Under the pieces are notes generated by a model. It ran no database searches. It saw only the letters and a list, made by a program, of their open reading frames with translations, and was not told where the DNA came from. From Pseudogymnoascus verrucosus (taxonomy: Eukaryota): a stretch of DNA of 64,000 nucleotides. Below are positions 3,057 through 62,094 of this stretch, in pieces. The stretch lies in assembly GCA_001662655.1 (NCBI GenBank), contig KV460273.1, one strand, 5' to 3'. Both the position numbers and the translations under genes were made by a program. Each line of letters begins with the position of its first letter. Position 1 is the stretch's first letter.

Positions 3057-3349
3057 GCGTGATGGGGAATGAATCTTTTTAATACCTGTAATGTACATAT
3101 GCCTTACGCTCGCGTGTGAACTTTGGATTTGAGACGAAAGTATGATCTGCTACAAAAATTGCAACGAAATAAATTATACCTTGACACTATTTTGTGGAAA
3201 CCAACACAGGTGGAACTGTAACCTCTGTAAAATACTGCCCTTTGACAATGTGTATACTTGTGAACAGAATACGTCTTTATATCAAATCAGCCTCTCCCTC
3301 GTCCTGCAACTCCATAGCTAAAAATGGCAAAAAAAAAAGAGGCAAAAAA

Positions 3350-3468
3350 ACATACAACAGTGGGTATTCGCTGGTGGTCACCCACCCAACTACTAATCCA
3401 CCGATCTCAAGCTTGTGTATGGCAGAGCGGACGGGATGCCCAATTCTCTTGAGTCTATGGTCGTATGT
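3350..3468 (-). rRNA. 5S rRNA (dispersed copy 1)
   Basis: Minus strand ACATACGACCATAG...GATTAGTAGTTGGGTGGGTGACCACCAGCGAATACCCACTGTTGTATGT, ~119 nt, followed by poly-T Pol III terminators. TATA-like element ~22-30 nt upstream. Confidence 0.96.
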
Positions 3469-43119: not shown

Positions 43120-43933
43120 GGGGGTTGGTAGGGGGTGGAGTTTTGGCGCGAGTTTTGGGTTGGGATCGAAGGAAATGGGGGATAGGGGTGATATGTATAA
43201 TGCTATATAATCCAAACAATGCGCAGGATGTTCGTTTGCACCGCTTGGAAACCATAACTTAAAAAGTCAAAAAAGCAAAAGACTCATCAGATATCTTTTA
43301 ATATCTGATGAGGGAGAAAATCATCTTTATGATTTTACTTTTTGTCGTTTGTTATTGTCGTGTCGATCGCTCGTTTCCAGTCTCTTTCTTTATTCCCATT
43401 TTTTTCTTCATCACCGGGTGTCGAACCCATAACCCCTTTATCCTCCGCTGGCCAGATTGTCCAGACAGTGGTACTACCACTGCGCCACTGTGCCGCTGGG
43501 AGGAGGGGGGTTATGTTTGTTTATAAGGGGGTGGGTGGTTCGCTTGCTGGGTTGGGGGCCTGAGGATGGAGGTTGGGTGTTTGGCTTAGGAAAGGGGGTG
43601 GGCGTTTCGCTTGCTTGGTGGGTGTGTGGCCTAGGGAAGGGAGAGGCTGAGGAAGGGGAGGATTACACGATTACCCGTTGGTTTGCTAGCAAAAGGAGGG
43701 ATTGAAATCATGAAAGTGCAGTCACGGCTCTGCTTTGTCTACAGAGATGCTTGACACATCTTTGCATGTGAAGTATGGGTTTTCCTTCTCCAAATGACCC
43801 CCGCCGATCCACCATCTTCGCACTGGATCACACCAGAGCACAGCAGGAAGTTATATAGCCCCCCAACTCTCATCTGGTATGGCTAATACTATGAGCTCTC
43901 AACCCAGATATAGCGCCATGGATACAAACATGA

Positions 43934-44980
43934 CTATAAACCCTTCAGCGACGGACACTCGAGGAGATTGTTCTCGAGGAAAGCAACGTCCAACTTCAAG
44001 CCAAAGACATTCCTGAAAGTACTGTCTGATGGCAAGTAAGGCGCAGAAATCGAGATGTCGCCTATTATACCAACTGGTTCATTCACGCCTGTAGAAAGCG
44101 TGGTGTTGAAGAAGGTGATCTGCTGATCACACTTTACGCCGTCGGCAAAGATGGGCTGGTTTGTTACATTGACATAGCTTGAATGGAGTTTAGCATAACT
44201 CTGGAAACAGGTATGGACATACGTACAATTCAAGTGGCCACGGGCCTACCGATGGAAGAGGCTTGAATTTAGTAGTGACTACCGCACTGTCGCTCTCATT
44301 CGTGTATGCGTTTAAGTAGATCTCCTGACCCCCCCTCGAGGGATGAGAGAAGGCGTAGGAATTATTTTCTGGTTTGAAAGTTGCCGGGATGGCAATTTGG
44401 CCATATGCTTCAGAACCTCCGATTGCAACAGTATTCGTCCCCGTGAGAATGAGATATTTGCCATAGGCGAAGCTTGAGTAGCCGTCTCCGAGCAAGTCTA
44501 CAAATGGGTAGAATATGTGAACGGACTTCAGTCGATTAGTTAGGAGAGGTTTGGTAAGAGTGTGAAGAGGTAAACCCACTTGGAAATCCGGTATAAGCTG
44601 AGTTCCGTTCAGACCAACATCGTGATCAAGGATTGACCGGACGATAAGCTGGGACAAGGGCTGTCAGTTACTCTACTTTCAATACACACTGTGCCACTCT
44701 TGCTTACGGGATACATATCATGAGGGAATCCAGGCAACGCAGATTTATACGCCTTCTTCAGAATGCCATATTGGGATGGGATAAGCTCGCGTGCGAGCGA
44801 ATATGGAATTGGAACCACGGCGATCGTGCCGTTTATGGTTCCGGTGACATCAGTTGGATATAGTGTACCGATTGGATTGGGCGCAGAATCAACTTGGGTT
44901 GGGGATGACAGTGAAGTCGTGGGAACTGCGAGAGCGATTGCACTTAACAGACATGCGACGGGGAAATTAGAGAGATGCAT
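43934..44980 (-). CDS. Secreted hypothetical protein
   Basis: Signal peptide MHLSNFPVACLLSAIALA. Three short GT-AG introns near 44708-44651, 44578-44529 and 44224-44178 link the ORF pieces. Boundaries approximate. Confidence 0.7.
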
Positions 44981-45368
44981 TTTGAGACAAATTACTTCGT
45001 AAGAAGGTATGCAAAAGCTTTGAAAAATAATAATGGGCTTGGGGGTGTTGTTGAATTTAAGACGCATATACTCTAGGCTTTTATTATAAATGGCTGGGGA
45101 AGTCGCTTCAGCTGAGCTATATTCAAATCACACTGCATATATTACTGCATATATCATGTAAGAACTAATACCAATTAGGCAAATTAAGGATCAAATCAGC
45201 TCCTCCAGCTAAAAATAATCAGCCTCAAAAGTCTTCACTAATAAAAAGCGGCCCTTTGCGCGGATAATAGACGGGGGCTTGCTCTCATAGGCATAAGGCT
45301 GTAGCCGCGTCAAGTGTTTTCAAACGTCTTATATTTACAGAAGTTATAGCTATTGCTGATAAAAATCT

Positions 45369-46321
45369 CTACCGGTTTGCGACGTGACGCCAGAAATCTC
45401 TCATCATCCAGATATCGAACTCTGTAACAACCTGAGAGCTTCCAGCGAGCATGATGAAGTTTGTTTGGCCCGTAGGTGTCCAGTCGTAGAAGTCATCGAG
45501 CCCCATAGTGTGACCCTGAATGGTTAGAATTCATAGAAGCAATCAGATGGCAAAAACTCACAAACTCATGTAGCCAAATGTGCGGATTATCGAGAGCAGA
45601 CAAGAAATACTCGCTCCCAACACGTTGGCCCCAGTCACCACCAGCACCGCCATCCATTCCTGCTGTGAGCCAAAGAGACACGTCATAGTGGCGGTCAGCT
45701 CCTCCCGGACAGGAGCCATAGTTGTTATCTTGATGGAAAATACGACCACAGCGGGGATCACACTCCGCTACACCTTCTGAATCTGTCGTTGTATAGACGT
45801 CGATGCCGGAGGTAGAACCTTGAAGGAGGTTCGTGTTTTTAGCAGCCCATCCAACTACATTGACAGGAATATTGTCGTATGGCCAACCCATGAACCCAGT
45901 GAGATTGTCGGTCCATTTCTTGACGTTTTTCTGGAGAGAGCTCGCGATGGCTGTGCGTTGGGCCTCGGTCACTGTAGCACTAGAGTCCCAACGGACGCAG
46001 AAGTTGAGTTTCCTGTAGCATATTAGCATTCTGATCTGGCGTTATTGCAGACACATACCCTCCGGAAGCCTTTATGATATCATAGCCATAGTTCTTAAAT
46101 CCTAGGAGATTCCCATTATTGTAGGTCGACGACTCGTGATCCCATACCTCTTGGAGGGGCTTGACAAGGTTCGAAGGGGGATTCCAAGTCGTCTGTCGTT
46201 TGGCCCAGGACGTCTGTCGCTTGGTTAACGAAGAAGCCCACACATCGCCGCTAAGATCACGATGATCTGAGGCAACGGCAAGGTTGGTTAGACCGGCAAG
46301 TATAACAGCTGTCAATTTCAT
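45369..46321 (-). CDS. Secreted HExxH zinc metallopeptidase-like protein
   Basis: Signal peptide, KR propeptide sites, LNFCVRWDS, GGDWGQR; the spliced motif reads WLHEF|GHTMGLDDFYDW. Introns ~46058-46013 and ~45560-45516. Confidence 0.75.
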
Positions 46322-47289
46322 AATCGATTTACTTGGTAGGAATAGCACACGTAGTGGGAGTAGTCGAGAAATGGGATGGAGGAATGTGATGCCTTTTAAT
46401 AAATTTCATCGTTGCATTAATTTCTAGATTAGGGAAGGGGATTGCGAAACGGAAGAATTTCTCAAGGTTTTCTGCTTCAGTCATGGGAGATAATCTATAA
46501 TTTTGATTTAAGTTCCACTGTAGATAAAACCTCATTAAGATGGAACCGTTGCCAAGAGGCGAAGAGGAATTCAAAATGCGGGGAGGGAGATCGAGAGTCT
46601 TTCTGATTAGTGGACCGAGTTATTTGTTTCAGATGCCCACTTTACAAAGTTTAACTAAACGTCAGGGTTTGATTATTGCCTGTTCTCCTGTCTTGGCCAA
46701 GGGATTATCGAGAAGGGAAGCTCGGTATATATCTGCCGCGATGTAATATATTAAGGTAGCATAAGAATGGAGTGTGGGGAATTAGATGGTAATAAGCCAC
46801 TGAAAATTAGCGGCAATAGGCGGAAAATTGAATGACAGGGGATATGGCATTAGGAAAACAAATTGCCTTGGCAGCTTAGGCTTTTATGGCATGGGCAAGG
46901 ACTGATAGGGTCGTACGCCGAAATGGCAACTGACCCCTGTGAGGATACTTCATAGAGTCTCTTGTCACCCTTGTGTAGAAGCTTATAAATTCGCCGCGGC
47001 ATTGGATACACTTGATGAGAGTCGATGCCTCACTTATGTCATCAAAACTGTTCCACGGGTCGACGAAAGGAGGAGTTACGCTTGTGTCAGGGTGAGTGAC
47101 CAGGAGGTAACTCAGCCTTCCTCAAAGAGCTTCATCCCGAGCAGATCAAGGGAAAGTTTCATCTTAACGACCTCAAATTGCTTGTATAGAGGCAAAGGCA
47201 CAGCGAGGGCGATGAGCCTTGGTGGTGGACTACGGTGGGGGGTGAGCTGTGCGAGCGCTTCGAGAACAGAGGAGGTGGGGCCGGTAGTA

Positions 47290-50200
47290 AAGGGGTATCG
47301 ACAGCAAAAAAAGTGACGACAACAGACTAACAGCAGCAGCAACAGACCAACAGCGACAAGAGGCTCTAGCAAACCTCCATTATTATCTCCGTCTTCCCAG
47401 CCCCCACGCCGACGTTCCACTGCTGCGATTCCAAACCCCTTTGCCCACACAGGACAACCCTTGATGCCTTCGGAAGTCGCTTTTAAATCCTTGGTTTCTG
47501 CGTAGTGGAGGATAGGGGGATTTAAATAAGTTACGCATGCCGACATCCATGGTGCTGCTGTGGCGATGGTATGTCTTTGTCTGGATAGTTTCATATAGCC
47601 ATAGATTGCTCTCCACCCCATCCCATTAAACCAAACTCCAAGCACCATCACCATACATGGGCCGAGCAGCTATAAATTTGTAGCCGCCGCTCGCTGCGTA
47701 CAGTTGTAGAATCACAAAAAGAGATGAAAGACACCATCATTTCCATCCATAGAAGTAGCAAGGCGATGCATCTTTCATGGGATCGAGAGGTAGAAGAATG
47801 GCTCTGCAAATGTGTTGTTTCTGGCGCCGATGGTAGCGACGGAGGGGTGGGTAGTGGTGAGGATAGGGGTATCGACAACAAAAGCGTAACAACGGCAAAG
47901 TGCTAACGACGACAGCAGCCCTACTGTCAACAGTCTGCTTTACCAACAGCCCCACCACCAACATTAAATCAACACGCTCGGAATCCAGAACCCCATCCAC
48001 TGCACATCCATGCCATAAACTCTTAGCCCACCGTGATAGTTGCCCTTTATCGTTTTGGCGTTTAATGGTGCAATACAGTTCCTCTCTCTCCACCCCGTCA
48101 TATACTCACCAACCCATATCCCTAGCCGCGCGCACACCACGATCATAAAGCATGACAGAATGGGTGTGTTGGTTTTGGGGTTCTCGCTGTGGTTTCTGAC
48201 AGGAGCAGATATCTTATTTTAGTATATAAAAAACTCTCTTCCCCCCCCCTTTTATCCCCTTCCCATGAACCTCCGTAGAACTCCGAACTATACAAATAGC
48301 AACCCCCCGTCCCTCTCCCATCATTTTTACCGCGCCCACAAGAAAGAAATCGAAGACAACTGCCTAGGCCCATCCACCCCGGCGACGCTGTTGTACTCAC
48401 CCTCATTGCCACCACACGACGATGCGGCTCTATGGAGGTGGGTAGTTCAGGAGAACTGGTATTCTGTCGTTCGGCGGCTCTGCTGTTGTTGTTTACTCTG
48501 CTGCTGTAACCACACCCTGTTGTCGTCAGCCCCTCACCATCCACTCTGCTGTCACCCCTCCCCTTCCCGTCAGATACCCGAACATCCGCACTCACATCCG
48601 TTGGACACGCGCAGCGCAAGAACTCATGCTCATTGTTCTCAGGATCGGTTCGATTCGACGAGCCGGATGACGGTCCGGTTCACGACGTTTTCTTTGCTGA
48701 TACAGTTCAGTTCCTCTATCCTGGCCGCTTATATATGCGCCAGCCCATATTTCCGAGCACCGCAGGTGTTATGATTGCAAGGGGATGGGGACGAGGATGA
48801 TATTATTGCTGTGCATGGAGAATTGGGACAGCAGATTTGCAATTTATGTAGTGCATCACGGCAGGGAGGAGAGTTGCTGAAGGACTTCAGCGGTGAGCAT
48901 GGGGAAAGCGATGAACGATGGACTCGGTCGTGGAAATGGAAGTGATGCAACTCAAGACTCAAATTTTCGATGAACATTCCCATGCCCGGGCCCCCCAGCC
49001 CCTCCGTCAAGATTTGAAATATCTCATCGTAATATATCTCCGTCTCCCCATCCTCCAAATCAAAACATCACAACCCCTCCCCCTATAAAGCACCCCCTCA
49101 CCCCCACCCCTCCATTCCACCATACAACAAGACAGCAATCCCAGAACACATCAACCTGCCGACGGCAGGAAGACAAAGCCTGCAAGATACTCACGGCTGT
49201 GTCCTATCCTCCGCGAGCGCAGGGTCATGCGGGACGGCAGGACAGGGTGAGGTGATGATAGCGACGACAGGGAAGCGGTGGTGACAGGATTGTATCAACG
49301 ACAGCAGAAACGCAGTGACGACAACACCCCACCATCCATCCAGCCCTTCACCCCCCCTCCTCCCTCCCCGCCGCCGACTCTATATTCCCCAATGCCCTCG
49401 TGAGAAGGGTAAGATCTTTGATATTAATGGTGTGGTAGGCTGAGGGTGATGCTAGGGGAGGAGGGGTATTTGTAGAGTCCGAACCAGGCTGGTTGTTGGT
49501 AGGGCTAGGGAAGGGGAGCAGGGATAGGGGAGTGCCGGGATTTGAGATGTGAGATGTGAGACGTGAGGTGGGGATGACTTGTATAATCGCTGCGTAAGGC
49601 TACATACCTCGATGATATTAAATCCAACCCCCCCGTCTTCTCCTCTTCCCCCCCCCTCCACCCCGTTCCCATCGCAACAACCCCCTAAATCCCCAACCAT
49701 AAAAACACCCCCCTCCCTCCTACTCCTCTCATTCCACCACATACGAACATTTATCAAAGGATATAAATGTGGGAAGTCTGTGGACAATAGGGTATCAAGG
49801 ACTAACATACATATGGTCGTGCGAGAGTGGGGTGAGGTGAGAATTCGCATCTACGTCCACCACCATGGGAGAGATGTCCCGTTAATGGCACAAAGGGGAT
49901 TCCTCTTCATCGTTCAGAAATGCACACGTCTTAGATGTAGTTGTGCCTGTAGCGGTGATAGGGGGGAAGGGGGGGGGTTGGATGGAGTTGTGCTTGCGGT
50001 GGTGAAAGGGGGTAGGTAGGTGGTGATAGCGGGTTATTTATGACAACAAAACCGCAACGACAGCAGCGCCCCGACGACAGAACGTAGTGACAGCAACCCC
50101 GTCCTCACTGCGCCCTCACACACCTCCACAAGCACCTCAACAATCTCCACAACCACCATAACCACACAGATCCCCGCTGTCTGCTCTGAGTGATGCCGGG

Positions 50201-51135
50201 GTCGGGGGGGTATTTATACAACCCAAACCAGGACGGTTGTTGTTGTTAGTAGGGAAGGAGCGGGCGGGAAAAATGGGGGAAAGGGGGGAGAGGGGATGGG
50301 ATGGTGGTGGGTTTGGATGATTCCTTGCATTCTCATAATATAATACGAAAACCCTGCCCCATTTTCCGCCCCCTTACCCCTCCTCCCTTCCCACCTTCCC
50401 ACCCTCCCACCTCATCCCCGAAACCCCCGAGTATAAAAAACACCCCCCCCCCCCACCCCTCCCCGCCACCAAACATCCACCAAAAAACAAAAGCGCAATC
50501 CAGTACGCTTTCTTCCCTTTCTCCCCCCTTCCCTCCTTATCCACCCTAGGTAGGTAGGCGACAAAAAAACAACCAAAAAAAACATACAACAGTGGGTATT
50601 CGCTGGTGGTCACCCACCCAACTACTAATCCACCGATCTCAAGCTTGTGTATGGCAGAGCGGACGGGATGCCCAATTCTCTTGAGTCTATGGTCGTATGT
50701 GACTATTCTTCGAGTGTTGGTGGATATATAGTAGTGTGCTTGGTCTAAGTGTTATGGTGTTCTGTGAACGAGATGAGAAATCGGAAACAGATATATCAAC
50801 AATATCAGAGCCGCCATCGCCTCTGAGTCTATTACAACTGTGCCTTTTGCTGTTATATCGAGTTCCTTACCTTAACCAGGGGAGTTGCCCAGTACGCTGA
50901 TTTCAGAAAAACCCCGTCTGAGATAGATACGGAAAAGGGAGGGTGTCGAAAGGAGTGTATGTCTGTCCTGTTCTTCCGGGAGTGGGTGAGTCAGTGAGTG
51001 AAAGGTTGTGGGAGTGAGTGAGTGAGTGAGGGTGTAGCAGTAGTGACAGGGGGCGTGTGGGTGATAGTAAGGAGAAGCGTTCTAACAAGAGAGAGGAAGC
51101 GGTGACAACAAACCCCCAACAACGACAGAACCTCC
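47290..51135. repeat. Diverged ~600-800 bp unit array, left arm (cores mostly GACARCA on +)
   Basis: Cores at ~47295, 47868, 48465 (inverted), 49260, 50040 and 51100. GGGGTATCGACA(G/A)CAAAA is shared by the copies at 47292 and 47866. Confidence 0.55.
50582..50700 (-). rRNA. 5S rRNA (dispersed copy 2)
   Basis: Identical to 3350-3468 by eye, with poly-T terminators and an upstream TATA-like element. Confidence 0.96.
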
Positions 51136-51845
51136 CACCGCCCATATCTCAGACAGTCGCATTTCCCCTCCATCCCGCTAGTAGATTCTCATCCCTCTCC
51201 TCTCCACAGCAGTGCCAGGTGCTAAGCCCGCAATGTACCCTTTGTCAAAAGCCATAGACGACGGGATTGTTCATCCGAGAGATACTAATAGGGGAGCATT
51301 AGCGTATAAAGCATAGGGAAGTATACTGTTGATAGAAGAATAAAGATGGGTAGGTAGTGGTCCACATAGATCCATACATCATCTCGTTGTCTAGGTGTAA
51401 GTAAGTTCGACCTGCCTACCTCGAGTGATGCCGGCACCGTATTTATACAGAGCTAGAGCCAACCCGATCTAGGTGGTGGGGGATGAAGGGTTTTAAGGCA
51501 CTGGTTAGGGGGGATGATGTGATTTTTGATATTATTTTGATTTGATTTATATTTATAGTTTCTAACCTCCCCCTCTCCTACTTTCCCTCTTCTCCACCTC
51601 CGCCTTCATCTCGCTCCCACGCCCACTCTCGAGCGACTGAACAGACAAACTGTGCTTTTGGTATCTTGAACAAAAAACAGAACAGAACTCCCATCTCCCC
51701 TTCCCCCTCTTTCCCTTCCTCCCCCCTTCTCCTCCTCCCCAAAAAACCCAGGATATATATGTGCAACCAATCCCCCAAACATGCTCCCCAACCGGTCCGA
51801 TGAAAATGATAAAAAATGCCAGGAAATGTTTTGCGTAGATGGCGG

Positions 51846-51976: not shown

Positions 51977-53902
51977 CTACCCACTCCTCCTCCCCTCAAC
52001 CTCCCCTTCTCTGCTTCCACTCCTCTCACTCTCCGTCCCATTCCCAAGATCAACCTTCTCACTCATCTCCCCCCCCGCCCCCACCGCAACACCCTCCTCC
52101 ACCCCCCCCAGCCGTCCCCCCACAAGCGTCCCCTGCGTCCCAACCCCCGAACTCGCGCTCCCCCTCGTCATCCCCCCCACACCACCACCCTCACTCCCCC
52201 GTCGACTAGAGCCATCCATACCCATCCCCGACAAACTCGCCATCTCGCCATGCTCGCGGATCCCATGGAGGTCGGAAGGTTCGATACGTTCTTCCACCTG
52301 GCTCATTCCCTCTTTGGCGGGTGTCCAGGCCAGGTAATCACGGCGGACTTCGACGTAATCGTATGCGAATTCACCCAACTGATCGTCGTCCATGCCAAGC
52401 AACTCCGCTGCTTCATCGGCGCGCAATTTCAATCCCGGGACGAAGTTGATGGTGTAAGCGAGGATGGCGGACATGAGGAAAGCGTAGGTGCCGCAAGCAA
52501 GGATGTATGCGACTTGGATGTAGAGTTGGCGGTAGTTGTGGACCAGCCAGCCGCCGGTGAGGACGCCGGTGTTGACGCCGTCGAGGCCGATGATGGTGGG
52601 TGTTGCGAAGAGGGCGTTGAAGAGGAGGCCGACGACGCCGGCGATGCCGTGCTCGGCGAAGACGTCCATGGAGTCGTCTATTTGGATCCAGAATTTGACT
52701 GTGCGTCTCCGTTAGCCTGTGCTCTCCAAGAAAGAGAAAGAAAGAAAGAAAGGTGAGAGAGGAAGGGGGACGTACTCTTCGTAGCAAAGTTAGCAACCAC
52801 GCCCGTCACAACGCCGAGAAGAACAGAAGCCCAGAGGGGAATAAATCCCGAAGCAGGCGTAGCAGCGACAAGTCCAGAAATGCATCCCGAACACCACCCA
52901 ACCATCGACCACTTCCTCGCGAGGCGGAAATCAAGCAGACACCACGTAGCAGCCGCCACCATAGCTGTCAAACACGAGTTCCAACACGCCATCACGGCCC
53001 TCAAATTCGCACCAAACGCGCTCCCGCCATTAAACCCCAACCATCCAAACCACAGCAACACCGTGCCCAGGGTAATCAAGCTCACATTATGCGGGCGAAA
53101 GTTAAGCATCATCTTCTCCTGACGCTTTCCGAGGACCATACTGTAAGCCAGAGCCGAGCAACCGGAGGCGATCTCGACGGGACCGCCGCCGGCGTAGTCG
53201 AGGACGCCGTATTTGAAGGCCCAGCCGTTGGAGTTCCAGATCCAGCAGGTTATGGGGCAGTAGACGAGGGTGGCCCACCAGAAGGTGAAGACCATGGCGG
53301 GGATGAGGCGGCCGCGTTCGGCGACGGCGCCCATGACGATAGCGGCGGTGACGGCGCAGAACATCATCTGGTGTTTGTCAGTACGCTGTCCCTATCGTGG
53401 AGGTGTAAAAGAGGGGGAGAAGGGCGTACTTGGTAGAAAGAAAACAACAACTCCGGAATCAACGGACTCCCTGGCGACGGCGCCCCCAGCGTCTTCATCA
53501 ACCCAAAATGCCTCAGATCACCAATAAACCCATTCGTCGCCGACTGACTGAACGCAAGCGAGTATCCCCAGAAATACCACTGAAACACAATCACCGAGAA
53601 ACTGCCCATACAGGCCCAGATCATGGACAACGCGGACTTGCGACGCGCGAGCCCGGAGTAGAGGAAGCCGAGCCCGGGGATCATGAGCAGGACCATGCAG
53701 CAGGCGACGAGGATGAAGGCTTGGTCGCCGGATTGGTACCATTGGTTTAGGTTTGTCGTTGCTGGGGGGTGTTAGTTTGGGGTTTCTGTGCGGATTTGGG
53801 AGGGTGGTTGAGGATAATGGGATGGGAGGGCGTACTGCTATCTCCTCCATCGCCTTCAGTCCCGTTGAAGGGCACGGGGGGTCCAATGCCGGTGTACGAC
53901 AT
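51977..53902 (-). CDS. Ammonium transporter, Amt/Mep family (MeaA-like)
   Basis: MVLLMIPGLGFLYSGL, GAVAERG, DYAGGGPVEI, WFGWLGFNGGS, DDSMDVFAEHG, QLGEFAYDYVE. Introns 53835-53762, ~53429-53368, ~52775-52699. Confidence 0.95.
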
Positions 53903-56059
53903 GTCTGCACGCGAAGCCCTCCGAGAGGACGGGCGCGTGGGGTGTGAAGTGTTCGAGGTGGCGGTGCTGGCAGGCTTTTGCTACCAAGATTGAAGAGACG
54001 AGACGAGAGGATTCGACGTGGTGAGAGAGATGAGGATCAAGTGGCGGCTGTTGGGTCGAGGTGTGGTGAGAATTGGGGGGGATATATATGTATGTCGTGT
54101 GCTGTTGTCCTACGTGACAGGAAGTTATAGTCGTCGGGATATTTTCCTTCTTCCTTCTTCTCACAGAGAAGAGATCGTGTGGTGTCTATGTATGTGGCGA
54201 AGGATAAATAATGTGATAACAATAAATTTTCGTCGTCGTCTATAATTGAGCTTGCTTGCTTTGTAGAGAGGATCGAGAATCGAGAATTGGAGAGAGACAA
54301 GGTCTAAGAGTAGTTTCCAAGCAGCAAAGACAAGTTTCAATATGTGCACGCGAGAATATGGAAATACAACAGTGTGTGGGAGGGGGAGGAGGAAGGTATT
54401 TAGCCCACCCCCCCTGCTACCCAACTCCAGGCCGCGAATAGAACATTGGGGGGCTAGGGGGCCAGGTCTAGGTTCCCTACTCTCTCCCTAGCATCTGTGG
54501 GGTTTTCCGGAGCGCATAATGATGGAGTGGGTTTCCTTTTTTTTTGCCTTTCCTTCCTTTCGTTCCATGTCCCGGTGTCCCCGGTATCGGTAGTCGACGG
54601 GATGGATGGGGGTTTGGGTGGGTGGTGGACTAGATGGGGGGTTTGTGGGTGGGGATGGGGATTGGGAGGGAGAGGGAAGACTAGGAAGACTAGGAGGGCA
54701 TGGGAGAGTGCTAGGAGAGGACAGAGATAGAGATGGAAGGAGCCAGTTAGACAGACGGAGGAAGGGGAGTTTGGGTGTGAGAGATAGAGGGATGGGGGGC
54801 GGTTAGTATGGAGATGTGCTAAGATGGTAGTCTACCCGAGTGCGTGCCAGTATAGTAGAGTAGGGTAAAGAAAGTGTGAACCACTGCAAGATGGGAGCGT
54901 GGGAGATCCGCCACCGTGGGCGATCCCTGGTTCTTGGGTTAGGGAGAGACATTGTAATGGAGTGTAATGAAGAGACGGGTACTTTGATGGTGGTATAGAA
55001 ATAGCGGGAGGAAGATGTACTATCGACGGATGGCAGTCCACTCTCGCGTTCTAATGAGATTTACAAACCGAAGGAAGGGTCAATCGCAGCCAATGGGGGG
55101 AGGAGTAGCGGCTGATTAGAGACGAGGATAAGTACAGTGGTGGGCGGAGGGAGGAACTGATAACGCTACGACACGATGAGTTAGGAGTATCGAGAGATTA
55201 GCATTAGTGTAAGCTGAGGGTAAAGTAGTAAAAGTGGTAGTAGTAGAGAAACAGTACTTTATTTTTTCATATAAAATATACCATCCAACAAAGTATCTTC
55301 TCACTAGCCCCGTACACTTCGCATGCAGAAACTAGGAAAACGTAGATGCGGCTGTGTGCGAGGGGTGGAGTAACGAAAAAGGACAGGGGGGGCGACGAGG
55401 AGAGAGGAAGCTTATCTCTCTCCAATAAATCCACCTTGTCTCTCATTCGCTGTCTGCTCCACCAACCCACGCACAAAATAAGCATTTCTCGCACCCGGCG
55501 CCATCGATGCCCGCGTCGCTTCTAGAATGGGATGTTGTGTGTACTTGTGGGTGTGGGTGTAAGTTAGCCTTGTTGAGGGTGGTTTTGGGTGGGTGGGAGA
55601 GGTGGGAGAGGTAGAGTGTACTTGTGATTTCTGTGAAGGGGGGGCTGTTGGGCACTGTAGAGGGTCTGTAAGGCAGTGAAGAATCAATCTTCTCCTTCTT
55701 TTGCCAATTTGCGGGTGGATGGGAAGGAAAAGCTTGCTTGAGGGGGGATGGAGTCACATGTTTGGGCTGTATGTATGAAGGGGATGGAATCACATGTCTG
55801 ACCTGTAGACTTGGCTGTTGATTACAGACGACTATGCAGAGAACTGTACTGTCTACTCCCCCATCGCCTGCATCACCATCGCAGAAGAACGTACCATCTA
55901 CCCTACCACAATCCTGATCTTCTCCGATTCTTTCCCCTTCCCACAACCAAAGCAAGCAAACCACAGCACCCAAACATCCCTCCCGATCCTCCCCGTCCCT
56001 TCTTTCGCCACCAACACACCAAACACAACAACCCGACCCCTCCCGACCCTCTATCTCCC

Positions 56060-59000
56060 CCCCTGTCGCCTCCGTAACTCAATGCTGTCACCACAGATAA
56101 GAACCCTTCCCCCCTGGTCCCGTTATCCCCAATCCAGTATAGACGGGTGGTGCTAAAACAAGGTGGCGCGCCAAGAGGGGGTTAGTCTTATCGCTGGGTG
56201 ATGATCCCTGCACGACTGACTGCCTGTCCCTGGGCGTGCATGTAAGACTTTCGTCAGACGGGAATTGGAAATACTGGAGAAATCGGAGATGCGAGATTGA
56301 GTTGTGGGATAGTTGATGGGGGTGATGAGGGATGCGTGACGAGAGGGTAATTTGGATAAGTACGGGGTGGAGGTAGGGTTTGTTTCTCCGTACATTACTC
56401 CGGGATTTCGGGGGTGATGATGAATGATAATCACGATTACTGTCTACGTGGGGGATACGAATTGAAATTCCAAAAAAGAAACACGAGTCCAAGTGCCTGC
56501 TTGCCTTCCTACCTGTCTACCTGCCTTCCTCTCTACCTGTCTACCTACCTACCTGCCTTCCAGCCTACGTACTTGCTTTTCCCTACCGCTAAAACGGACG
56601 CGGCTCGGGAGAATGAGTCGCGAACACGGACCAAGAGATAGGGAAATAAACGAGCGCCGCCCGCTGCTGAGCAGGATTTTTGCGCGCGCGCGCGCCGCGT
56701 GGGAGGCTGAGTGAGTGAGCTATGACGATGAGGGACGGGATGTGTGCACGTGAGTGATTACGGGGGTGTAGTGAGAACAGGTATCAGGTATGGGAATTTG
56801 GAGGGTGATGGGGGATGGAAACATGGGGGATGGGGGATGGGGGACCGGGGACCGGAGGGGATAGAAGAGGCCAGGCATACCTGCTCGAGTGCAAGAGCCT
56901 ACCTTCCTAGATCTGGCACGCACACGTGCTCCTCCTATCTAAATCTGCCATCCCCTCCCATCTATCCCCTTATCACCTCCCTTTAATGGCCAGTGGGATT
57001 GTGTATATAAACCCCCTCCACGCACGCTGAGGGGACGCTTTCTTCCATCATCGAAACATCGTAACTGGTTTGCTAGGGTTCTTATGTGGTTGGTTCTGTG
57101 GGGTGGGCTGGGTTCTAGGGGAGAAAAGGGGGGGGGATGGATGTATGAGGGATGGGGGAAGGGGTGGATGTGATGTTGTTGGTAGGATGGTGGTGCTGTC
57201 ACCGGTTTTGCTGTCACTGTTTTGCCGTTACCGTTTTGCTGTCGCCGTCGCCATCCTCTACTGCTGTCATTACCCTTCTCGCGCCTGGATTGAATACACC
57301 ACGTTTTGGATGGAGGAGGTAGGTGTTCCGATCTTAGAGATGGATCCTCGAGTTGTTCTCGAGTATGGTTCTCATTGATTCGAAGAACGGGATTGAATCA
57401 TGGTTTGTAGGTTATTGAAGGCCTTGGTATATAAGTTCGGTTTTGTTAAAAGTTCTATGGCCGTGGATTCCTGATGGACTGGGGATGAGGGGATGATATA
57501 TTGACATCTCGCATCTTTATATTTTATTATAATATAACCCCCTCACCCCCGTTCTCCCGCAAAAGGGTAAGTAATACCATCATCCCACCTCCCACGTCCC
57601 CTCTACTTCTTCCCCCCCCCCCTACCACCCTCCCTCCTACAATAAATAACCCCTCTTACCCCTCCGACCGCCGCATATATAAACCCCCTCTACACACGCT
57701 TAGAAGAGACTTCTCCAACAATTACGAATCTTCCACAGATGAGTTGAAGGCGCCGTGGATGTTAGTGAATATGTGGCTGGTGAGTTGGTGATGGTGTGAG
57801 ATGATTGGTGTTAATTCTTCATGTAGATGCGGTGTCTTGTCGTCGATTCGCTGCTGTCATCGCTTTCCTCTCACCGTTGCCCTCTCATACCGTCGTCGGG
57901 CCGCTTCTCACCTCAGCGAGCGGCAGATGTGCAGACGGGCGGAAATGATATGGGATGTTAGAGGGGTTAAGTGTTTAAATATTTCCTCATCTCCCCCGTG
58001 GTCATATTCATGCCTAGTGCTTCGATTTTTATATTCTGTCTGTGGTTCGTGGGTTTGGGGTGCTATTATATGTGTTTTGCGGCTATGGTTTTTGGACGAA
58101 GGGAAGGAGGGGTGAGGGATGATAGGAGATTATGGGGGGAAGCGGAAGGGCGGATGGGGATGGGGATGGGAATAGGGTTGTTTTATTTTATCTTTTTATA
58201 TCGATTATAATGGTGATTATTAAATATCACGTTCCCCCAAAAAGGCTTCACACCATATCTGCGTCCACAAACACGCCCCTCTAACACCAACAAGAACCTA
58301 CAAGAAAATGAATAAAGATGACCCTCCAAGTAATTGCCTGTTCCCCAGGAAAGTGACAGAAACGATAACTACCAAGCAGATTGAGTGGAGATCCGCAACC
58401 TTTCATTCACCCAATATCCAAATGACCCCCCCTTCCCCTCCCCCAAGTACAGCGTCTGCCATCGCACCCAGATTCCTGTCACCGCTGACAGCCCACCGTC
58501 ACCCATCTCTTGTCGTCAGCTAAGTAAACCCAACAAACACAGCGAAGCGTTTATGGATTGGCACAGTAGGCGGGAGACAGGGACGCCAGGCGAATATCTA
58601 CCTTCCTAGCACCGTTCTTTGAGTATTTTACAACAGCCTGTTTAAAAGGATGCTGTCTGTATACGTAACGTCTCCTTCTCTACTATTTGTATGAAGTTGT
58701 TTAGTGAGGTCTGTGTTGTAGCTCGTTTTGGAAGGAGGGGGGTTTGGGGGATTTTATGTTGGTTTTTTTTGTTGCTGTGTCAATTTCTTGGGGGCGAGGA
58801 GGGGAGGTTGTTATATTTTATATTTTTACTATAATTACTATTATAATACATTTCTCTTCACCCCTCACAAAGGCAAGTGAACACCGCTCAGCTTCCTTAT
58901 CACTTCTCATCCTTTCTTTGCGATGTCCTTTCCTACCTTGATCGTGTATAAAACTCCCTCCAAGCACGCTCAGAAAATGCCTCTCCAACTTTCATCCAAA

Positions 59001-60660
59001 TCGAGGCTTGGTGGAACAGGCGTGGCGGTTGCTGGGATGACAAGTTGCTGGTGGGCTGGCGTGCTGTGCACTGATGTGTGAGAGTTGTTGATTCTTTGCT
59101 GAAAGGTAATGCTGTTGTCGATACGCTGTTGTCACGGCTTTGTTCTCACTGTCACCGCTGATACCCTACCGTCACATCTTACTGTGGCCTCTCCATAAAC
59201 ACAATACGCGCAAGAGCACGGCACACGCATGGAAGGGAATGGTGGAATTATACGCTGCAGCTTCGTGATCGGAGAAAGCAAAGGGCCAAGAGCGTAACAC
59301 CGTGTACCTTGTCATTTCCAATCTGTGGGCTATGGAGTAGAAGGGAGGAGGTGGGTTTATGGTCTTTATGTAGGTTTTTGCCGACGTGGGTTTTTTGCGG
59401 ATGTGCGGAAGGAGGTGGGAAGATGGGGATAAGGGATGAGGGATGAGGAATGAGGAGATGAGGGGTGGGCGGAAGAGGAAGAGAATGAAGTTGTTTGTTT
59501 TCTGTTTTCTGTTTTCTGTTTAAATTTAATGACGATTATAAGATATTCCTCCCCCGTACCATGAGAACAACACAACCACCTCAACCCCCTCTGCAAATGA
59601 TAAGTCCATCCCCTAACCTCCCTAACATTTCTCATGCCTCCCCGCTGTAATAATGTATATAAATCTTTCCTCCACAGCAGGGCCATGCTTTCCTTCACAT
59701 CCAAATTGAACCATGGTAGAACTCGACTGTATGGTCGTTCCAGCCGGGAAGGCTGACACACTGTTGTGAGGCTGGTTTTATCACTGAGGTCCGTTAATCC
59801 CCTCGTTCGAATATGATACTGTTGTCCCCGTGATATCTGCTGTCAGTGCTTTGCTGTCACCACCAACCCCCCCTGTCGCTCCATCCTCCCACCACCACTT
59901 CCCCCACCGCCACCCTAACATCAAACCTCAAGGCAAGGGCCAAGCTTCCACCTCCCCGCCGATGAATCTGTGCGCTTCATTTGCACTCTCGTGGTTCCCT
60001 CGGAGTAGGCCAGTCGTGGAAAGCTGCCATTTTGTCCGCTGAAGGTTGAAGGGCCTCATTTCATTATTTGTGCACTCTTATAGTGTCCTGAATGTCGTGG
60101 AAAAAGGGGGAAGCGGTGGGGTGTTGGGGAGGGAGAGGCTGGAGAGAAGTTGGGGAGAAGTTGGGGAGAAGTCGAGGAGGAGTTGTGGAGAAGTTGGTAA
60201 TAATGGGGTGCATGGGAATGCCGAAGTTTACAGGGCGGTGATTACAAGGTTTTTCTGAAGCCTGCTTCGTATTAAAGTCTCCTGTTCTGTTCATATCATT
60301 CGTCTCAGGAACGCAAAAGCTAATACGCATTCCCACGCCCCCAACACTTCTCACACACCCATCTAGTAAGACCGCGCCCCCCGCGATCCTAAGCAACTAC
60401 TGTTAAAATCCGATCGCATAATCTTCAGTAAACCTTTCATTCGAACTCCATCCTGATGACTATAATAAACCCAAGTCAAGTGGTTGTGGGCTTTCCTGTA
60501 CTTTACATCCTCGAACCTACTGGCTGGATAACTCACTGGAGTTTGTTAAACCCCCCTTGAACATGATGTTGTCATCACTGCCCTTGATGTCGCTGCTGAG
60601 TCCAGCTGAGCTGCTTCTTGTTGTCACCACCTAATGCCGCCACCGCCCGATCTCGCTGTC
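56060..60660. repeat. Diverged ~620-760 bp unit array, right arm (cores YTGYTGTCR on +)
   Basis: TATAAA-CCCCTC-CACGCT-AG boxes at 57006, 57678 and 58947. Cores at ~57200, 57840, 58480, 59115, 59840 and 60570. Units at 57678 and 58947 align over ~200 bp. Confidence 0.7.
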
Positions 60661-61118
60661 ATCTCTCGGCTTGGTGTCTTCACACATGCTAGCTCTGAGT
60701 GGAGAGCGTGTCGTAACGAGTTGGGTTGGGTGTGTGAGGCGCAGGAGTTACACGTGGACCAGGCGTTCCACCTAGATTGAATTTAAATAGTTCGGATGCG
60801 TTGTTTTGGTAATAGTGGATGGGATGGGGAATTTTATATGCGTTGGTGATTGTTGGTGATGGTTGAAGGAGGGGAAGGATAGGGGGGATGGAGGATTTGA
60901 GGAGGCGGGGAAGATGGATGGGTTGGATGGGGATGCTGAAGTTGATGGAACAATGTCAACAGATGATTTCGCACCTTGCTTGGGGTCGGAGTGTATAAAA
61001 ACTCCCTGTTCTGTTCTGTTCTGTTCTGTCCTGTTAGTTGGTTACGGCAACCAAGCAATTACTTCCTTGTCACAGACGGATAAATATATTTCATTTCCAT
61101 AATAGTTATATAAAATAC

Positions 61119-62094
61119 CTAATTTAACGATCGGCCTCCATCGACTGGCAACTCGATTCCTGTGATGAAAGCTGCCTCGTCACTCGCGAGAAAGGCTGCG
61201 GCATTTGCGATGTCTGCTGGGGTTGCGAACCTGCCAAGCGGAATTCCTGATAATATCTGCTTTCGATTTTCTGGGGTATCAGGCTTTCCAAGGAAGAGGG
61301 GAACCCTAGCACCAGTGTGTTAGTTACGAATATAGCTGCAACAAGAACGGAGAACAGGAGGGGAAAAGGGCTCAATGAAGCACTAAGACGTACATGGCTG
61401 TCTCTCCCGCAACTGGACAGATAGCATTGCAGCGGATATTATCCTTTGCCAATTCTGCTGCTAGCCCTTTGGTAGCCTGTAACCACAGTATCAGTACCCA
61501 TTTGATAATGAGCGGCTAGAAATGGCACGGGAAGACATACTGCACTTGCTGCGCCTTTGCTGGCAGCATACCAGACGAGATTTGGACGAGGTCGCAGAGC
61601 GCTTATACTCGATATATTAACAAAAACACCGCCCTGGCCTTGCTTCTGCAAAAAGGGGCTAATGACCCTGGCACTCTGGTAGAGACCCTTGATATTCACA
61701 CGGAATATTCGGTCAAACTCTTCTTCTGAGAGTTCGAGAGACGACAGTTGTGGAGTCAGCATGCAACTTTCCACTTCTGAGGCGGAGAGATACGTACGAT
61801 TGCCTTATTCACAATACCGGCATTATTGACAACAACATCGAGTCTCCCGAATGAACTGATTGCAAGGTCAAGCGCCTTGCACCAATCGGCTTCAGAAGTC
61901 ACGTCCCCCTGGAGAAAAACCGCGGACCCTTGCGGTTGAGCCGCTGCTACGCTTTCTCCATTCGCTGCGTTGATGTCGACGAGGACCACTTTTGCGCCCT
62001 CGGCGACGAACTTCTCAGTAATGCCTGCTCCGAATCCGAAGCCGGCTCCGGTGACAATGGCGACTTTACCCGAAAGCCTTTGAGACGACATCAT
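61119..62094 (-). CDS. Short-chain dehydrogenase/reductase (classical SDR)
   Basis: [17 protein letters not shown], and C-terminal [12 protein letters not shown]. Three introns. Confidence 0.92.

Follow-up and report, generated by a model that had tools for sequence, protein, structure and literature searches.

Two arrays of diverged units, each unit about 650 bp long, flank an ammonium-transporter gene in the window (the whole 64,000-nt stretch of DNA that was analysed). Together they form one family of roughly a dozen units with a common anatomy, which lacks coding and folding signals and is absent from the relatives examined. The arrays, at 46.9-51.6 kb on the minus strand and 55.9-61.1 kb on the plus strand, are mirror images that face outward, away from the transporter gene, and are probably small non-coding RNA genes, a modest curiosity. 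The original prediction had placed a tandem family in the second block. Its observation is confirmed and its interpretation partly supported: the plus array is real, but the family is twice as large in total, the minus array at 46.9-51.6 kb having been missed.

The motif TGYTGTCR occurs 28 times in the window versus 7.20 ± 3.06 times in shuffled sequence, and 0 of 100 shuffles reached 28. Twenty-four of the 28 matches fall within these blocks and point the same way as the TATA boxes; only 4 lie elsewhere. The plus array holds 12 of them (56083-60626), all on the plus strand, and the minus array another 12 (47299-51110), 10 of which are on the minus strand. A leave-one-out nhmmer profile of the core, built from the 12 other units with the tested unit excluded, found the core again in 10 of 13 units (E = 8.5e-8 to 0.0034), with the right orientation each time, and missed the three weak units p0, p3 and p6; with the full core model, nothing outside the arrays fell below E = 0.3.

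The plus array is flanked by the region upstream of the ammonium-transporter gene and, on its other side, by the 3' end of a gene for a short-chain dehydrogenase. It contains the following features.

55900-61100, plus strand: the whole array, units p0-p6 and a truncated p7, defined by motif counts, core profile and composition
56063-56090, plus strand: p0, a degenerate first core without a TATA box; missed by leave-one-out
57006-57031, plus strand: p1 TATA-CACGCT box TATAAACCCCCTCCACGCACGCTGAG, repeat family D18; leave-one-out promoter profile E = 5.5e-4
57184-57276, plus strand: p1 core, four TGCTGTCR and one degenerate copy; leave-one-out nhmmer E = 9.7e-6
57193-57343, strand not applicable: p1 stretch under an exact contig of run X4, with 0 other letters
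57678-57703, plus strand: p2 TATA-CACGCT box, placed by its TATAAA; repeat family D18
57796-57898, plus strand: p2 core; leave-one-out nhmmer E = 1.3e-7
58476-58515, plus strand: p3, a weak core without a TATA box, sharing a 27-mer with p4; missed by leave-one-out
58947-58973, plus strand: p4 TATA-CACGCT box, placed by its TATAAA; repeat family D18
59106-59174, plus strand: p4 core; leave-one-out nhmmer E = 3.5e-5
59658-59663, plus strand: p5 TATA box, placed by its TATAAA, CACGCT part missing
59811-59870, plus strand: p5 core; leave-one-out nhmmer E = 0.0034
60461-60660, plus strand: p6, TATA-like TATAATAAA at 60461-60469 and a loose core at 60567-60660; found by the full model only, missed by leave-one-out
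60994-61035, plus strand: p7, the last unit, truncated; TATAAAAACTCCCT, then directly (CTGTT)6
57506-57543, strand not applicable: one of the AT islands at unit boundaries, bordered by a G-rich tract on the left and a C-rich tract on the right
58171-58214, 58803-58860, 59503-59533, 50328-50352 and 51513-51569: further unit-boundary AT islands

TATAAA starts at 57006, 57678, 58947 and 59658, each exactly where it had been predicted; the CACGCT part is present at the first three positions but missing from the box at 59658. Cores start at 56063, 57194, 57837, 58476, 59113, 59820 and 60567 (intervals of 1131, 643, 639, 637, 707 and 747 nt), and those from 57194 to 60567 agree with the core positions of the original prediction. 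The pair of 27-mers at 58476 and 59149 described as matching is identical at 24 of 27 positions.

The minus array and the gene between the arrays comprise the features below.

46900-51600, minus strand: the whole array, units m1-m5 and the inverted unit x48, defined by motif counts, core profile and composition
51042-51447, minus strand: m1, TATAAA at 51447-51442, core at 51132-51042; leave-one-out E = 3.4e-4
49986-50218, minus strand: m2, TATAAA at 50218-50213 then GGCATCACTCAG, core at 50118-49986; leave-one-out E = 8.9e-8
49245-49474, minus strand: m3, TACAAATA at 49474-49467 then AGCATCACCCTCAG, core at 49334-49245; leave-one-out E = 1.5e-6
48289-48571, plus strand: x48, inverted within the minus array, TATACAAATA at 48289-48298, core at 48434-48571; leave-one-out E = 3.2e-6
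47803-47931, minus strand: m4 core; leave-one-out E = 8.5e-8
47244-47528, minus strand: m5, TATTTAAAT at 47528-47520, core at 47344-47244; leave-one-out E = 3.8e-5
52211-54334, minus strand: ammonium-transporter gene, context outside the family; Pfam PF00909 (E = 4.6e-61) and spliced contigs; introns at 52699-52775, 53368-53429 and 53762-53835

A 5S rRNA gene also sits inside the minus array.

The layout of the units is fixed, running through a G-rich leader, the core, a C-rich segment, a G-rich tail and an AT island. This compositional order is strand-specific and common to 12 units, with G exceeding C in 0-2 of the 12 at positions -240 to -150, in 9-10 at -90 to -30 and in 1-2 at +30 to +60. 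In the good units, a pyrimidine tract comes after a TATA box. Five of 13 units have a strict sense TATAAA at 90-200 nt 5' of the core, compared to a chance expectation of 0.039 per unit; near-TATA boxes, identified by eye, lie 104-181 nt upstream of the core in p6, m3, m5 and x48, and 4 of 13 units are devoid of a TATA-like box of any kind. The promoter box that had been described as conserved holds for p1, p2 and p4 but is not family-wide, as its leave-one-out profile brought back 3 of 10 boxes at E ≤ 0.16. The two other copies of the 26-nt TATA-CACGCT box (D18) are 81% and 65% identical to the copy at 57004, and extended promoter blocks of 26-69 nt are kept within p1/p2/p4 and, separately, within m2/m3 (74% over 69 nt by self-BLASTN). 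TATAAA is enriched on both strands, with 21 of the window's 46 copies within about 9.9 kb. G-quadruplex motifs, carried by the G-rich tails, are likewise enriched on both strands of the arrays.

The core consists of 2-5 TGTC-centered copies per unit (44 in 13 units, all sense), which form a sense-strand cluster of the consensus element TGYTGTCRYYRC. Conservation among the 44 copies is T35, G29 and Y41 before the TGTC anchor and R39, Y39, Y39, R37 and C29 after it, and differences at the variable positions are mainly transitions. The base following TGTC is A in 19 instances, G in 20, C in 2 and T in 3. A repeat step of 14-17 nt had been predicted; 17 of 31 intervals measure 13-20 nt, but the full range is 5-59 nt and the step is not strict.

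Our preferred reading, to which we assign a probability of about 0.45, is that the arrays represent a family of short, TATA-driven non-coding transcription units specific to this lineage, in which the TGYTGTCRYYRC cluster probably binds a protein. About a dozen units would each be promoted independently, presumably by RNA polymerase II. Each would run, on the sense strand, from an AT island through a pyrimidine-rich tract with the TATA box, a G/T-rich leader of ~100-150 nt, 2-5 copies of TGYTGTCRYYRC, a C/A-rich segment and a G-rich tail with G-quadruplex motifs to the next AT island. Judging from this layout, the products are most likely non-coding RNAs of ~0.4-0.5 kb, in which the motif cluster would be the sole sequence-conserved transcribed element. 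The cluster may act as a multivalent platform for a sequence-specific nucleic-acid-binding protein, either on the RNA or on transcribed DNA; the shared orientation of the motifs does not speak to the RNA or the DNA level, because the units share it by descent and it does not count as independent evidence. Tandem duplication, inversion and the gain or loss of entire units may have enlarged and reshaped the arrays. Of the small transcription units originally envisaged, the non-coding version fits best (layout, TATA boxes and one contig), while the micropeptide version is unsupported.

Transcription of the units is hinted at by that one contig, in p1 only. Run X4 yielded an exact 151-nt contig on 57193-57343, comprising the p1 core and a downstream stretch; the run is labeled metatranscriptomic yet flagged as possibly DNA, and the contig carries no strand, start or end information. 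The three other X4 contigs that match the window fall on exons of the transporter gene, a spliced one among them (joint 52698/52776).

Independent TATA-type Pol II core promoters drive short non-coding transcripts in filamentous ascomycetes. The units described here resemble these in having a TATA box with a pyrimidine tract, tandem units of a few hundred bases and no conserved ORF, and differ from them in the mirror arrays around one gene, the TGYTGTCRYYRC cluster and the fixed G-rich/C-rich layout. A second comparison is offered by fission yeast, where the DSR motif bound by Mmi1 is UNAAAC. As outlined in the respective reports, S. pombe meiRNA and DSR hexanucleotides are bound by Mmi1 (PMC3352096, PMC4077057), and the prt lncRNA adjoins pho1 (PMC4911910). 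The likeness to meiRNA/DSR and prt lies in multiple short, degenerate, sense-strand motif copies in what is here a candidate non-coding Pol II transcript, and the likeness to prt also in a position beside a nutrient-regulated gene. The motif is a different one, the yeast examples are single genes compared to an array of a dozen here, and the present units point away from the transporter. Protein binding and an effect on the neighboring gene are putative for the present units.

Alternatively, the arrays could be a relic without function, the decayed remains of an ancient duplication (tandem or segmental) in intergenic DNA, with the TATA boxes as leftovers, the TGYTGTC cluster surviving as a slippage-prone repeat and the G- and C-rich tracts as self-renewing low-complexity DNA; we regard this as possible but unlikely. 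The units hardly align: self-BLASTN of 46.9-61.1 kb gave 2 HSPs at E ≤ 1e-3, and the mean pairwise local score between units is 27.3 versus 23.1 in reversed controls. Away from the islands, similarity between units is close to noise level. The core itself partly resembles a degenerate simple repeat, with triplet periodicity (autocorrelation at lag 3, z = 10.5), further peaks at lags 14, 17 and 20 (z ~4) and, in p1, a 14-nt tandem repeat of 3.9 copies; slippage could therefore maintain it without function. Decay would also accommodate the limited reach of the promoter profile and two observations on relatives. In one relative's contig, 50951 is followed directly by 51610, so that 658 nt, or about one unit, are missing, which fits weak constraint on copy number, and a syntenic relative that keeps the transporter gene lacks the units. 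Related loci totaling 672 kb lack them as well. Units that had decayed neutrally to near-random identity, however, should not jointly retain three features in 10-12 units of two arrays, namely the strand-specific composition, the fixed TATA-to-core distance and the position-specific, transition-only motif pattern. The RNA-run contig on one unit and the m5 core kept in a relative also argue against a relic; in the latter case, 2 of 36 residues of the relative's ORF P0002 are changed over the m5 core versus 17 of 108 elsewhere, which may hint at constraint. Minisatellites and decayed tandem duplications share with the arrays head-to-tail units, 14-17-nt internal repeats and the one unit-sized length difference; they differ from the ~650-bp units, with promoter-like boxes at a fixed distance and a strand-specific layout that has outlasted alignable identity.

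The units could instead be genes for hydrophobic, Cys-containing micropeptides of 6-75 aa (such as LLSLRFCCHK and MLLSIRCCHG) that evolve rapidly through frameshifts, a reading we consider improbable. An ATG does lie 3-15 nt 5' of the core motif in a Leu-Ser frame in p0, p1, p4, p6 and m3 (and, by eye, in p5), m2 and m3 both read ...LRFCC[HR] and differ at synonymous positions, the motif is stop-free in all three sense frames, and the lag-3 periodicity is strong. A coding family with a common frame is nevertheless not supported, as no reading frame is common to the units: just 5 of the 31 intervals between motif copies of a unit are multiples of 3, the frames of the ATGs relative to the motif show no bias (7/5/6 overall, 4/2/4 for the first motif), and first-AUG ORFs are unrelated from unit to unit. 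Per-codon log-likelihoods are negative in 11 of 11 candidate ORFs (-0.02 to -0.34) and positive in 12 of 12 genes (+0.06 to +0.41), a partly circular comparison because these 12 genes are the model's training set. Translated similarity of at least 30 bits is as frequent in sense as in antisense (3 versus 3), and the best alignments cross stop codons. Pfam searches with 9 ORFs gave nothing above the curated cut-off (the lone sub-threshold match was DUF6404, 17 bits versus 27.6), a protein atlas search with candidate ORFs gave no usable match, 0 of 8 ORFs are present in a collection of 15 billion proteins, and homologue searches with two further ORFs found none. The longest conserved ORF, used as the query of an exhaustive HMMER search, had a single match, an 87%-identical ORF of a relative.

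To a similar degree, it is doubtful that the clusters work purely as DNA-level site arrays for a transcription factor or chromatin protein (TALE homeodomain, multi-zinc-finger or other), serving as promoter-proximal elements, or else forming boundary or regulatory modules on either side of the nutrient-regulated transporter gene. Sites of this kind would account for the 2-5 direct copies per cluster of a 12-bp, purine/pyrimidine-degenerate, 3-bp-periodic motif, for the symmetric bracketing of one gene and for the enrichment of TATAAA and G-quadruplex motifs on both strands. Against this, the motifs are located 3' of the TATA boxes, always on the sense strand, and the cluster occurs in 0 of 36 related loci of at least 6 kb. 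The syntenic relative keeps its transporter gene without arrays, which means that basic regulation of that gene does not require them. The TALE-homeodomain (Meis/TGIF/Cup9-type) consensus is TGACA/TGTCA. Some motif copies do contain CTGTCA, but a TALE array should have an invariant core, and only 19 of the 44 sense TGTC instances are TGTCA while 20 are TGTCG; the degenerate 12-mer is also longer than a homeodomain site. The TALE suggestion of the original prediction is therefore not supported.

Antisense TATAAA starts at 46984, 47671, 48225, 49084, 49762, 50432 and 51305 on the plus strand of the minus array, and at 57521, 58033, 58200, 58822 and 60838 on the minus strand of the plus array. 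It is very improbable that these boxes, found about once per unit in or near the next AT island, pair with the sense TATA boxes in convergent transcription, with the resulting overlapping RNAs entering a small-RNA or DNA-methylation pathway. In favor of this reading, the AT islands are symmetric in composition, and an antisense box is kept between neighbors together with its C-rich tract (49084-49126 versus 50434-50475, 81% over 43 nt). The antisense boxes may, however, simply be AT-rich 3'-end signals of sense units, and the complementarity of G-rich and C-rich arms is generic. The precedent is the disiRNA loci of Neurospora, which, according to the abstract of PMC3764098, lie in the gene-rich part of the genome; the arrays share possible promoters on both strands and a gene-rich region without RIP, and that abstract does not mention tandem mini-units like those found here.

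Four further candidates were not supported. For a structured ncRNA, folding z-scores range from -1.25 to +3.45 with 21 of 22 sense values at or above 0, RNAalifold predicted 0 pairs, and the 5S rRNA alone reached an Rfam gathering score. Sub-threshold miRNA-like Rfam matches at 50250-50420 come from generic G-tract/C-tract pairing. For a transposable element, arm complementarity is 16.4 within a junction versus 16.3 ± 3.8 across junctions, and there are no copy-specific terminal repeats; the predicted lack of TIRs, LTRs and transposase is borne out by the repeat search and self-BLASTN, which found no long inverted or direct repeats, and by Pfam, which found no domain in the ORFs. RIP is indicated by TpA/ApT above ~0.89 and (CpA+TpG)/(ApC+GpT) below ~1.03. 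The two arrays have values of 0.79 and 0.74 for the first index and of 1.15 and 1.17 for the second, like the rest of the window (0.80 and 1.17). Pol III genes can have an upstream TATA box, as the Neurospora 5S gene does. In the units, no T-run terminator recurs at a set distance, the T-runs that precede the last motif differ in length from unit to unit (T3 to T7), and the X4 contig continues through the three T4 runs of p1.

All of the sequences quoted in the original prediction were found where it had placed them, and the iterated TGTC core it described exceeds chance: TGYTGTCR occurs 28 times in the window compared to 7.2±3.1 in dinucleotide shuffles, and none of 100 shuffles reached 28. 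Twelve of these matches lie at 56083–60626, all on the plus strand, another twelve at 47299–51110, ten of them on the minus strand, and four elsewhere. The two opposite-strand blocks reveal a mirror-image array at 46.9–51.6 kb, across the ammonium-transporter gene, so the reported plus array is confirmed (55.9–61.1 kb) but the extent was set too small and the second array missed. Both arrays are oriented away from the transporter gene. The arrays are real, larger than reported, and form a lineage-specific pair of rows of promoter-bearing, non-coding mini-units. The surroundings are unremarkable filamentous-ascomycete chromosomal DNA, with Pfam-supported genes for protein disulfide isomerase, a Cdc14-type phosphatase, Nsp1, an HLH factor, a kelch protein, a GH5 cellulase, CRT10, and the ammonium transporter.

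Annotated features cited in the text.
52211–54334, minus strand: ammonium-transporter gene (Pfam), with three introns backed by spliced joints in contigs of three sequencing runs
61122–62094, minus strand: short-chain dehydrogenase gene (PF00106/PF13561 in three exon pieces)
50581–50700 and 3349–3468, both minus strand: two dispersed 5S rRNA genes (Rfam, 74.2 bits each)
60994: TATA box of the truncated unit p7, followed directly by a (CTGTT)6 microsatellite (61006–61035) where the unit body is expected

The short-chain dehydrogenase gene, which separates the plus array from the next conserved gene, forms the right-hand boundary of the arrays region and had no tblastn match in 80 related loci. 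The 5S gene at 50581–50700 lies inside the minus array, between the body of m1 and the G-rich tract preceding m2, and has its own TATATATCC upstream.

We defined 13 candidate units (p0–p6 in the plus array, m1–m5 and the inverted x48 in the minus array). A leave-one-out core profile, built each time from the other 12 units, recovered ten of the 13 in the correct orientation (E = 8.5e-8 to 0.0034), p0, p3, and p6 not being recovered, and the full core model gave no match below E 0.3 in the window outside the arrays. The cores contain 44 TGTC-centred motifs, 2–5 per core. Aligned on TGTC as the anchor, these read T (35/44), G (29), and Y (41) on the upstream side and R (39), Y (39), Y (39), R (37), and C (29) on the downstream side, with variable positions that differ chiefly by transitions. 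The proposed spacing of 14–17 nt holds in part, with 13–20 nt in 17 of 31 intervals but a full range of 5–59 nt. Autocorrelation of the cores is strongest at lag 3 (z = 10.5), with repeat periods of 14, 17, and 20 nt at z ∼4. Motif intervals within units (including the 57184–57276 core) fall at 2 mod 3 in 15 of 31 cases, at 1 mod 3 in 11, and at 0 mod 3 in 5; in-frame spacing is therefore rare although the lag-3 periodicity inside each copy is very strong.

The 26-nt TATA-CACGCT box is present in p1, p2, and p4 and is confined to those units; m1–m3 carry another box, TATAAATA...GCATCACYC(A)G, and a leave-one-out promoter profile recovered just 3 of 10 boxes. Five of the 13 units have a strict sense TATAAA 90–200 nt ahead of the core (chance, 0.039 per unit), and near-TATA boxes were seen by eye 104–181 nt ahead of it in four more (p6, m3, m5, and x48). 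TATAAA is enriched on both strands, 21 of its 46 copies in the window falling within the ∼9.9 kb of the arrays, with about one antisense copy per unit. In neighbouring minus-array units, 49084–49126 and 50434–50475 (plus strand) share 81% identity over 43 nt, comprising an antisense TATAAA, a C-rich tract, and CACCCCTCC...CCACCAWACA; this conserved block may serve either as a 3′-end signal or as a promoter for antisense transcription. Aligning the sense strands of 12 units at the start of the core yielded a single common composition profile.

Composition profile of 12 units (nucleotides from the core start).
−360 to −330: G-rich tract (G over C in 9–10 of 12 units)
−300 to −270: AT island (AT fraction 0.57–0.59)
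−240 to −150: C-rich tract with the TATA box (G over C in 0–2 of 12 units)
−90 to −30: G-rich leader (G over C in 9–10 of 12 units)
0: start of the core
+30 to +60: C-rich segment (G over C in 1–2 of 12 units)
+210 to +300: G-rich tail (G over C in 7–10 of 12 units)
about +360: next AT island

Canonical G-quadruplex motifs occur at 1.9 per kb in both arrays, compared to 1.4 around the transporter gene and 0.49 over the window's initial 46.9 kb; the plus array has about one per unit on the plus strand, and those of the minus array are mostly on the minus strand.

Of the small transcription units, encoding RNA or micro-peptides, and the binding-site array, possibly of TALE type, that were originally offered as readings, non-coding RNA units are the best supported. 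We tentatively interpret the arrays, with a probability of about 0.45, as short Pol II units, each independently promoted and making a non-coding RNA, that form a lineage-specific family. Each unit would use its own promoter to produce a short non-coding Pol II RNA; the multivalent TGYTGTCRYYRC cluster, as the sole conserved transcribed element, would be a platform to which protein binds, either in the RNA or in the transcribed DNA; and the G-rich tail and AT island would supply the 3′ end and the spacer before the next promoter. One run labelled metatranscriptomic (X4), which also yielded an exactly matching spliced transporter contig, contains an exact 151-nt contig at 57193–57343, corresponding to the p1 core plus the next 75 nt and carrying neither strand nor end information. 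Four X4 contigs in all match the 20 kb examined, and p1 is the sole unit covered, a hint that p1 is transcribed, with DNA carry-over possible. Contigs from two runs of a relative (X1 and X2), which include spliced transporter transcripts, gave none on the arrays at ≥90% likeness, a result not counted as evidence.

Several RNA classes were rejected for these units. T-runs vary from T3 to T7 among units and the X4 contig runs across the T4 runs of p1, which argues against Pol III genes. Folded, hairpin, or miRNA-like RNAs are disfavored by folding z-scores (21 of 22 at or above 0), by RNAalifold, which predicted no pairs, and by Rfam, whose sole match was 5S rRNA; for snoRNAs, Rfam likewise gave no match, and visual inspection showed no consistent C/D or H/ACA boxes. 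A scan for canonical introns gave 3 sense versus 23 antisense candidates for the plus array and 15 versus 34 for the minus array, indicating that introns are not common to the units.

Outside the conserved islands the units can scarcely be aligned: self-BLASTN over 46.9–61.1 kb returned two HSPs at E ≤ 1e-3, and the mean unit-versus-unit local alignment score was 27.3 versus 23.1 in reversed controls. A functionless, decayed duplication would share this divergence and stay recognizable through slippage-prone simple sequence; we consider it unlikely. If the units were inert, they would be a clean case of composition and short motifs outliving alignable similarity and misleading annotation. The absence of terminal inverted repeats or a transposon was upheld, left and right arms pairing no better within than across junctions (16.4 for own arms versus 16.3 for arms of other junctions), and a MITE/TIR element was rejected on the same grounds. 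A RIP relic was likewise rejected for the arrays, as was derivation from the transporter promoter, self-BLASTN finding no match between the arrays and 51.6–55.9 kb.

Micropeptide genes are quite improbable, and the coding claim was rejected on Pfam, codon scores, frames, translated comparisons, and homologue searches. What initially hinted at coding was LLSLRFCC[HR], readable in m2 and m3 with synonymous-looking differences; this apparent peptide is accounted for by the purine/pyrimidine degeneracy of the nucleotide motif, whose sense frames are all free of stop codons. Pfam gave no family at its curated cut-off for nine ORFs that cross the cores (one sub-threshold match, DUF6404). All 11 candidate ORFs had negative codon scores and the 12 training genes positive ones, a partly circular comparison. 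First-AUG ORFs bear no relation from unit to unit, ATG-to-motif frames are distributed 7/5/6, and translated unit-versus-unit comparison gave 3 sense versus 3 antisense alignments at ≥30 bits and 25 versus 17 at ≥25 bits, the top ones passing through stop codons. None of eight ORFs was found in a 15-billion-protein collection. The longest (m5, 144–180 aa) has only two counterparts, near-identical and Logan-derived, one of which was the single hit when HMMER was run exhaustively against 1.84 billion representatives; two further ORFs had no matches in the homologue search. The protein-coding annotation of the region is unchanged, whether the units are active or inert.

Arrays bound by a factor at the DNA level would also account for clustered motifs, and we hold this to be about as doubtful as micropeptides. 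The suggested TALE-homeodomain sites failed their defining test, TGTCA occurring in only 19 of 44 motif copies. Compared by eye, the Myb (CNGTTR), HMG/SOX (CTTTGTT), Ndt80 MSE, RFX, PUF (UGUR), and Nab3/Nrd1 (UCUUG, GUAR) motifs each fit only a minority of units. A convergent-transcription small-RNA locus, for which the antisense TATAAA copies might be cited, is very unlikely.

In mode of action, non-coding RNA units would most nearly resemble non-coding RNAs in which short binding motifs are clustered, namely S. pombe meiRNA and DSR with Mmi1 (PMC3352096, PMC4077057) and prt, a lncRNA adjoining pho1 (PMC4911910). Neurospora disiRNA loci may be a further analogue (PMC3764098). No description of such arrays was found in the literature searched, including a search by the motif octamer, which returned primer sequences only. 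A bolder proposal, which we think has a small chance of being right, is an undescribed kind of fungal locus: ∼0.5-kb non-coding mini-genes with promoter-like boxes at both ends, G-quadruplex-prone tails, and a sense (UGYUGUCRYYRC)n platform whose 3-nt-periodic, transition-tolerant pattern would be read by a modular nucleic-acid-binding protein, with such arrays recurring with other motifs in unrelated fungi and acting as a protein sink or a chromatin/transcription boundary around a regulated gene. If transcribed and protein-binding, the units would show fungi building and rapidly remodelling small non-coding gene families via tandem duplication, and a dozen natural variants of one promoter-motif-terminator layout would make a compact system for studying how core promoters work, how transcripts terminate at G-rich tracts, and how motifs bring RNA and protein together.

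Where the arrays stand here, a related fungus of identical gene order has ordinary spacers only, which makes it the telling comparison. The syntenic metagenome locus of a relative (L001/L002) keeps the order of neighbour gene, transporter, CRT10, and GH5, with a transporter exon 89% identical, in 12.2 kb versus 24.9 kb here. Nothing resembling a unit was seen in its 3.3-kb upstream spacer, which was read over its whole length; for the ∼1.5-kb downstream spacer, coverage was by automated scans only. Two TGYTGTCR copies within 60 nt were found in none of 36 related loci of at least 6 kb, and the profile scan of relatives proposed with the original prediction gave no core match at E ≤ 1 in all 80 loci (672,189 bases). 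The absence of units from L001/L002 and of core matches from the 80 loci indicates that the family is confined to a narrow lineage. Within it, a close relative keeps m5: its matching ORF (P0002) differs at 19 of 144 residues, with only 2 of 36 over the core.

One contig from a further run of a relative (X5) carries two joints: 50499 to 50915, where the 5S gene segment is skipped (415 nt; 25 other letters stand between), and 50951 to 51610, where a unit-sized 658 nt is skipped. With short contig flanks (37 nt), these joints only hint at differences between relatives in the 5S insertion and in unit copy number. Other X5 contigs cover the flanks, end at 56077, and resume at 61066, with 48.7–50.0 and 56.7–60.7 kb scarcely covered, which was not counted as evidence. 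Beside the minus array, ORFs at 44190–46029 (minus strand; within 43100–46900) have neither a Pfam family nor a counterpart in L001. X1 and X2 contigs with joints lie on 44001–44428 and near 45512–45629, pointing to at least one lineage-specific expressed gene adjoining the minus array.
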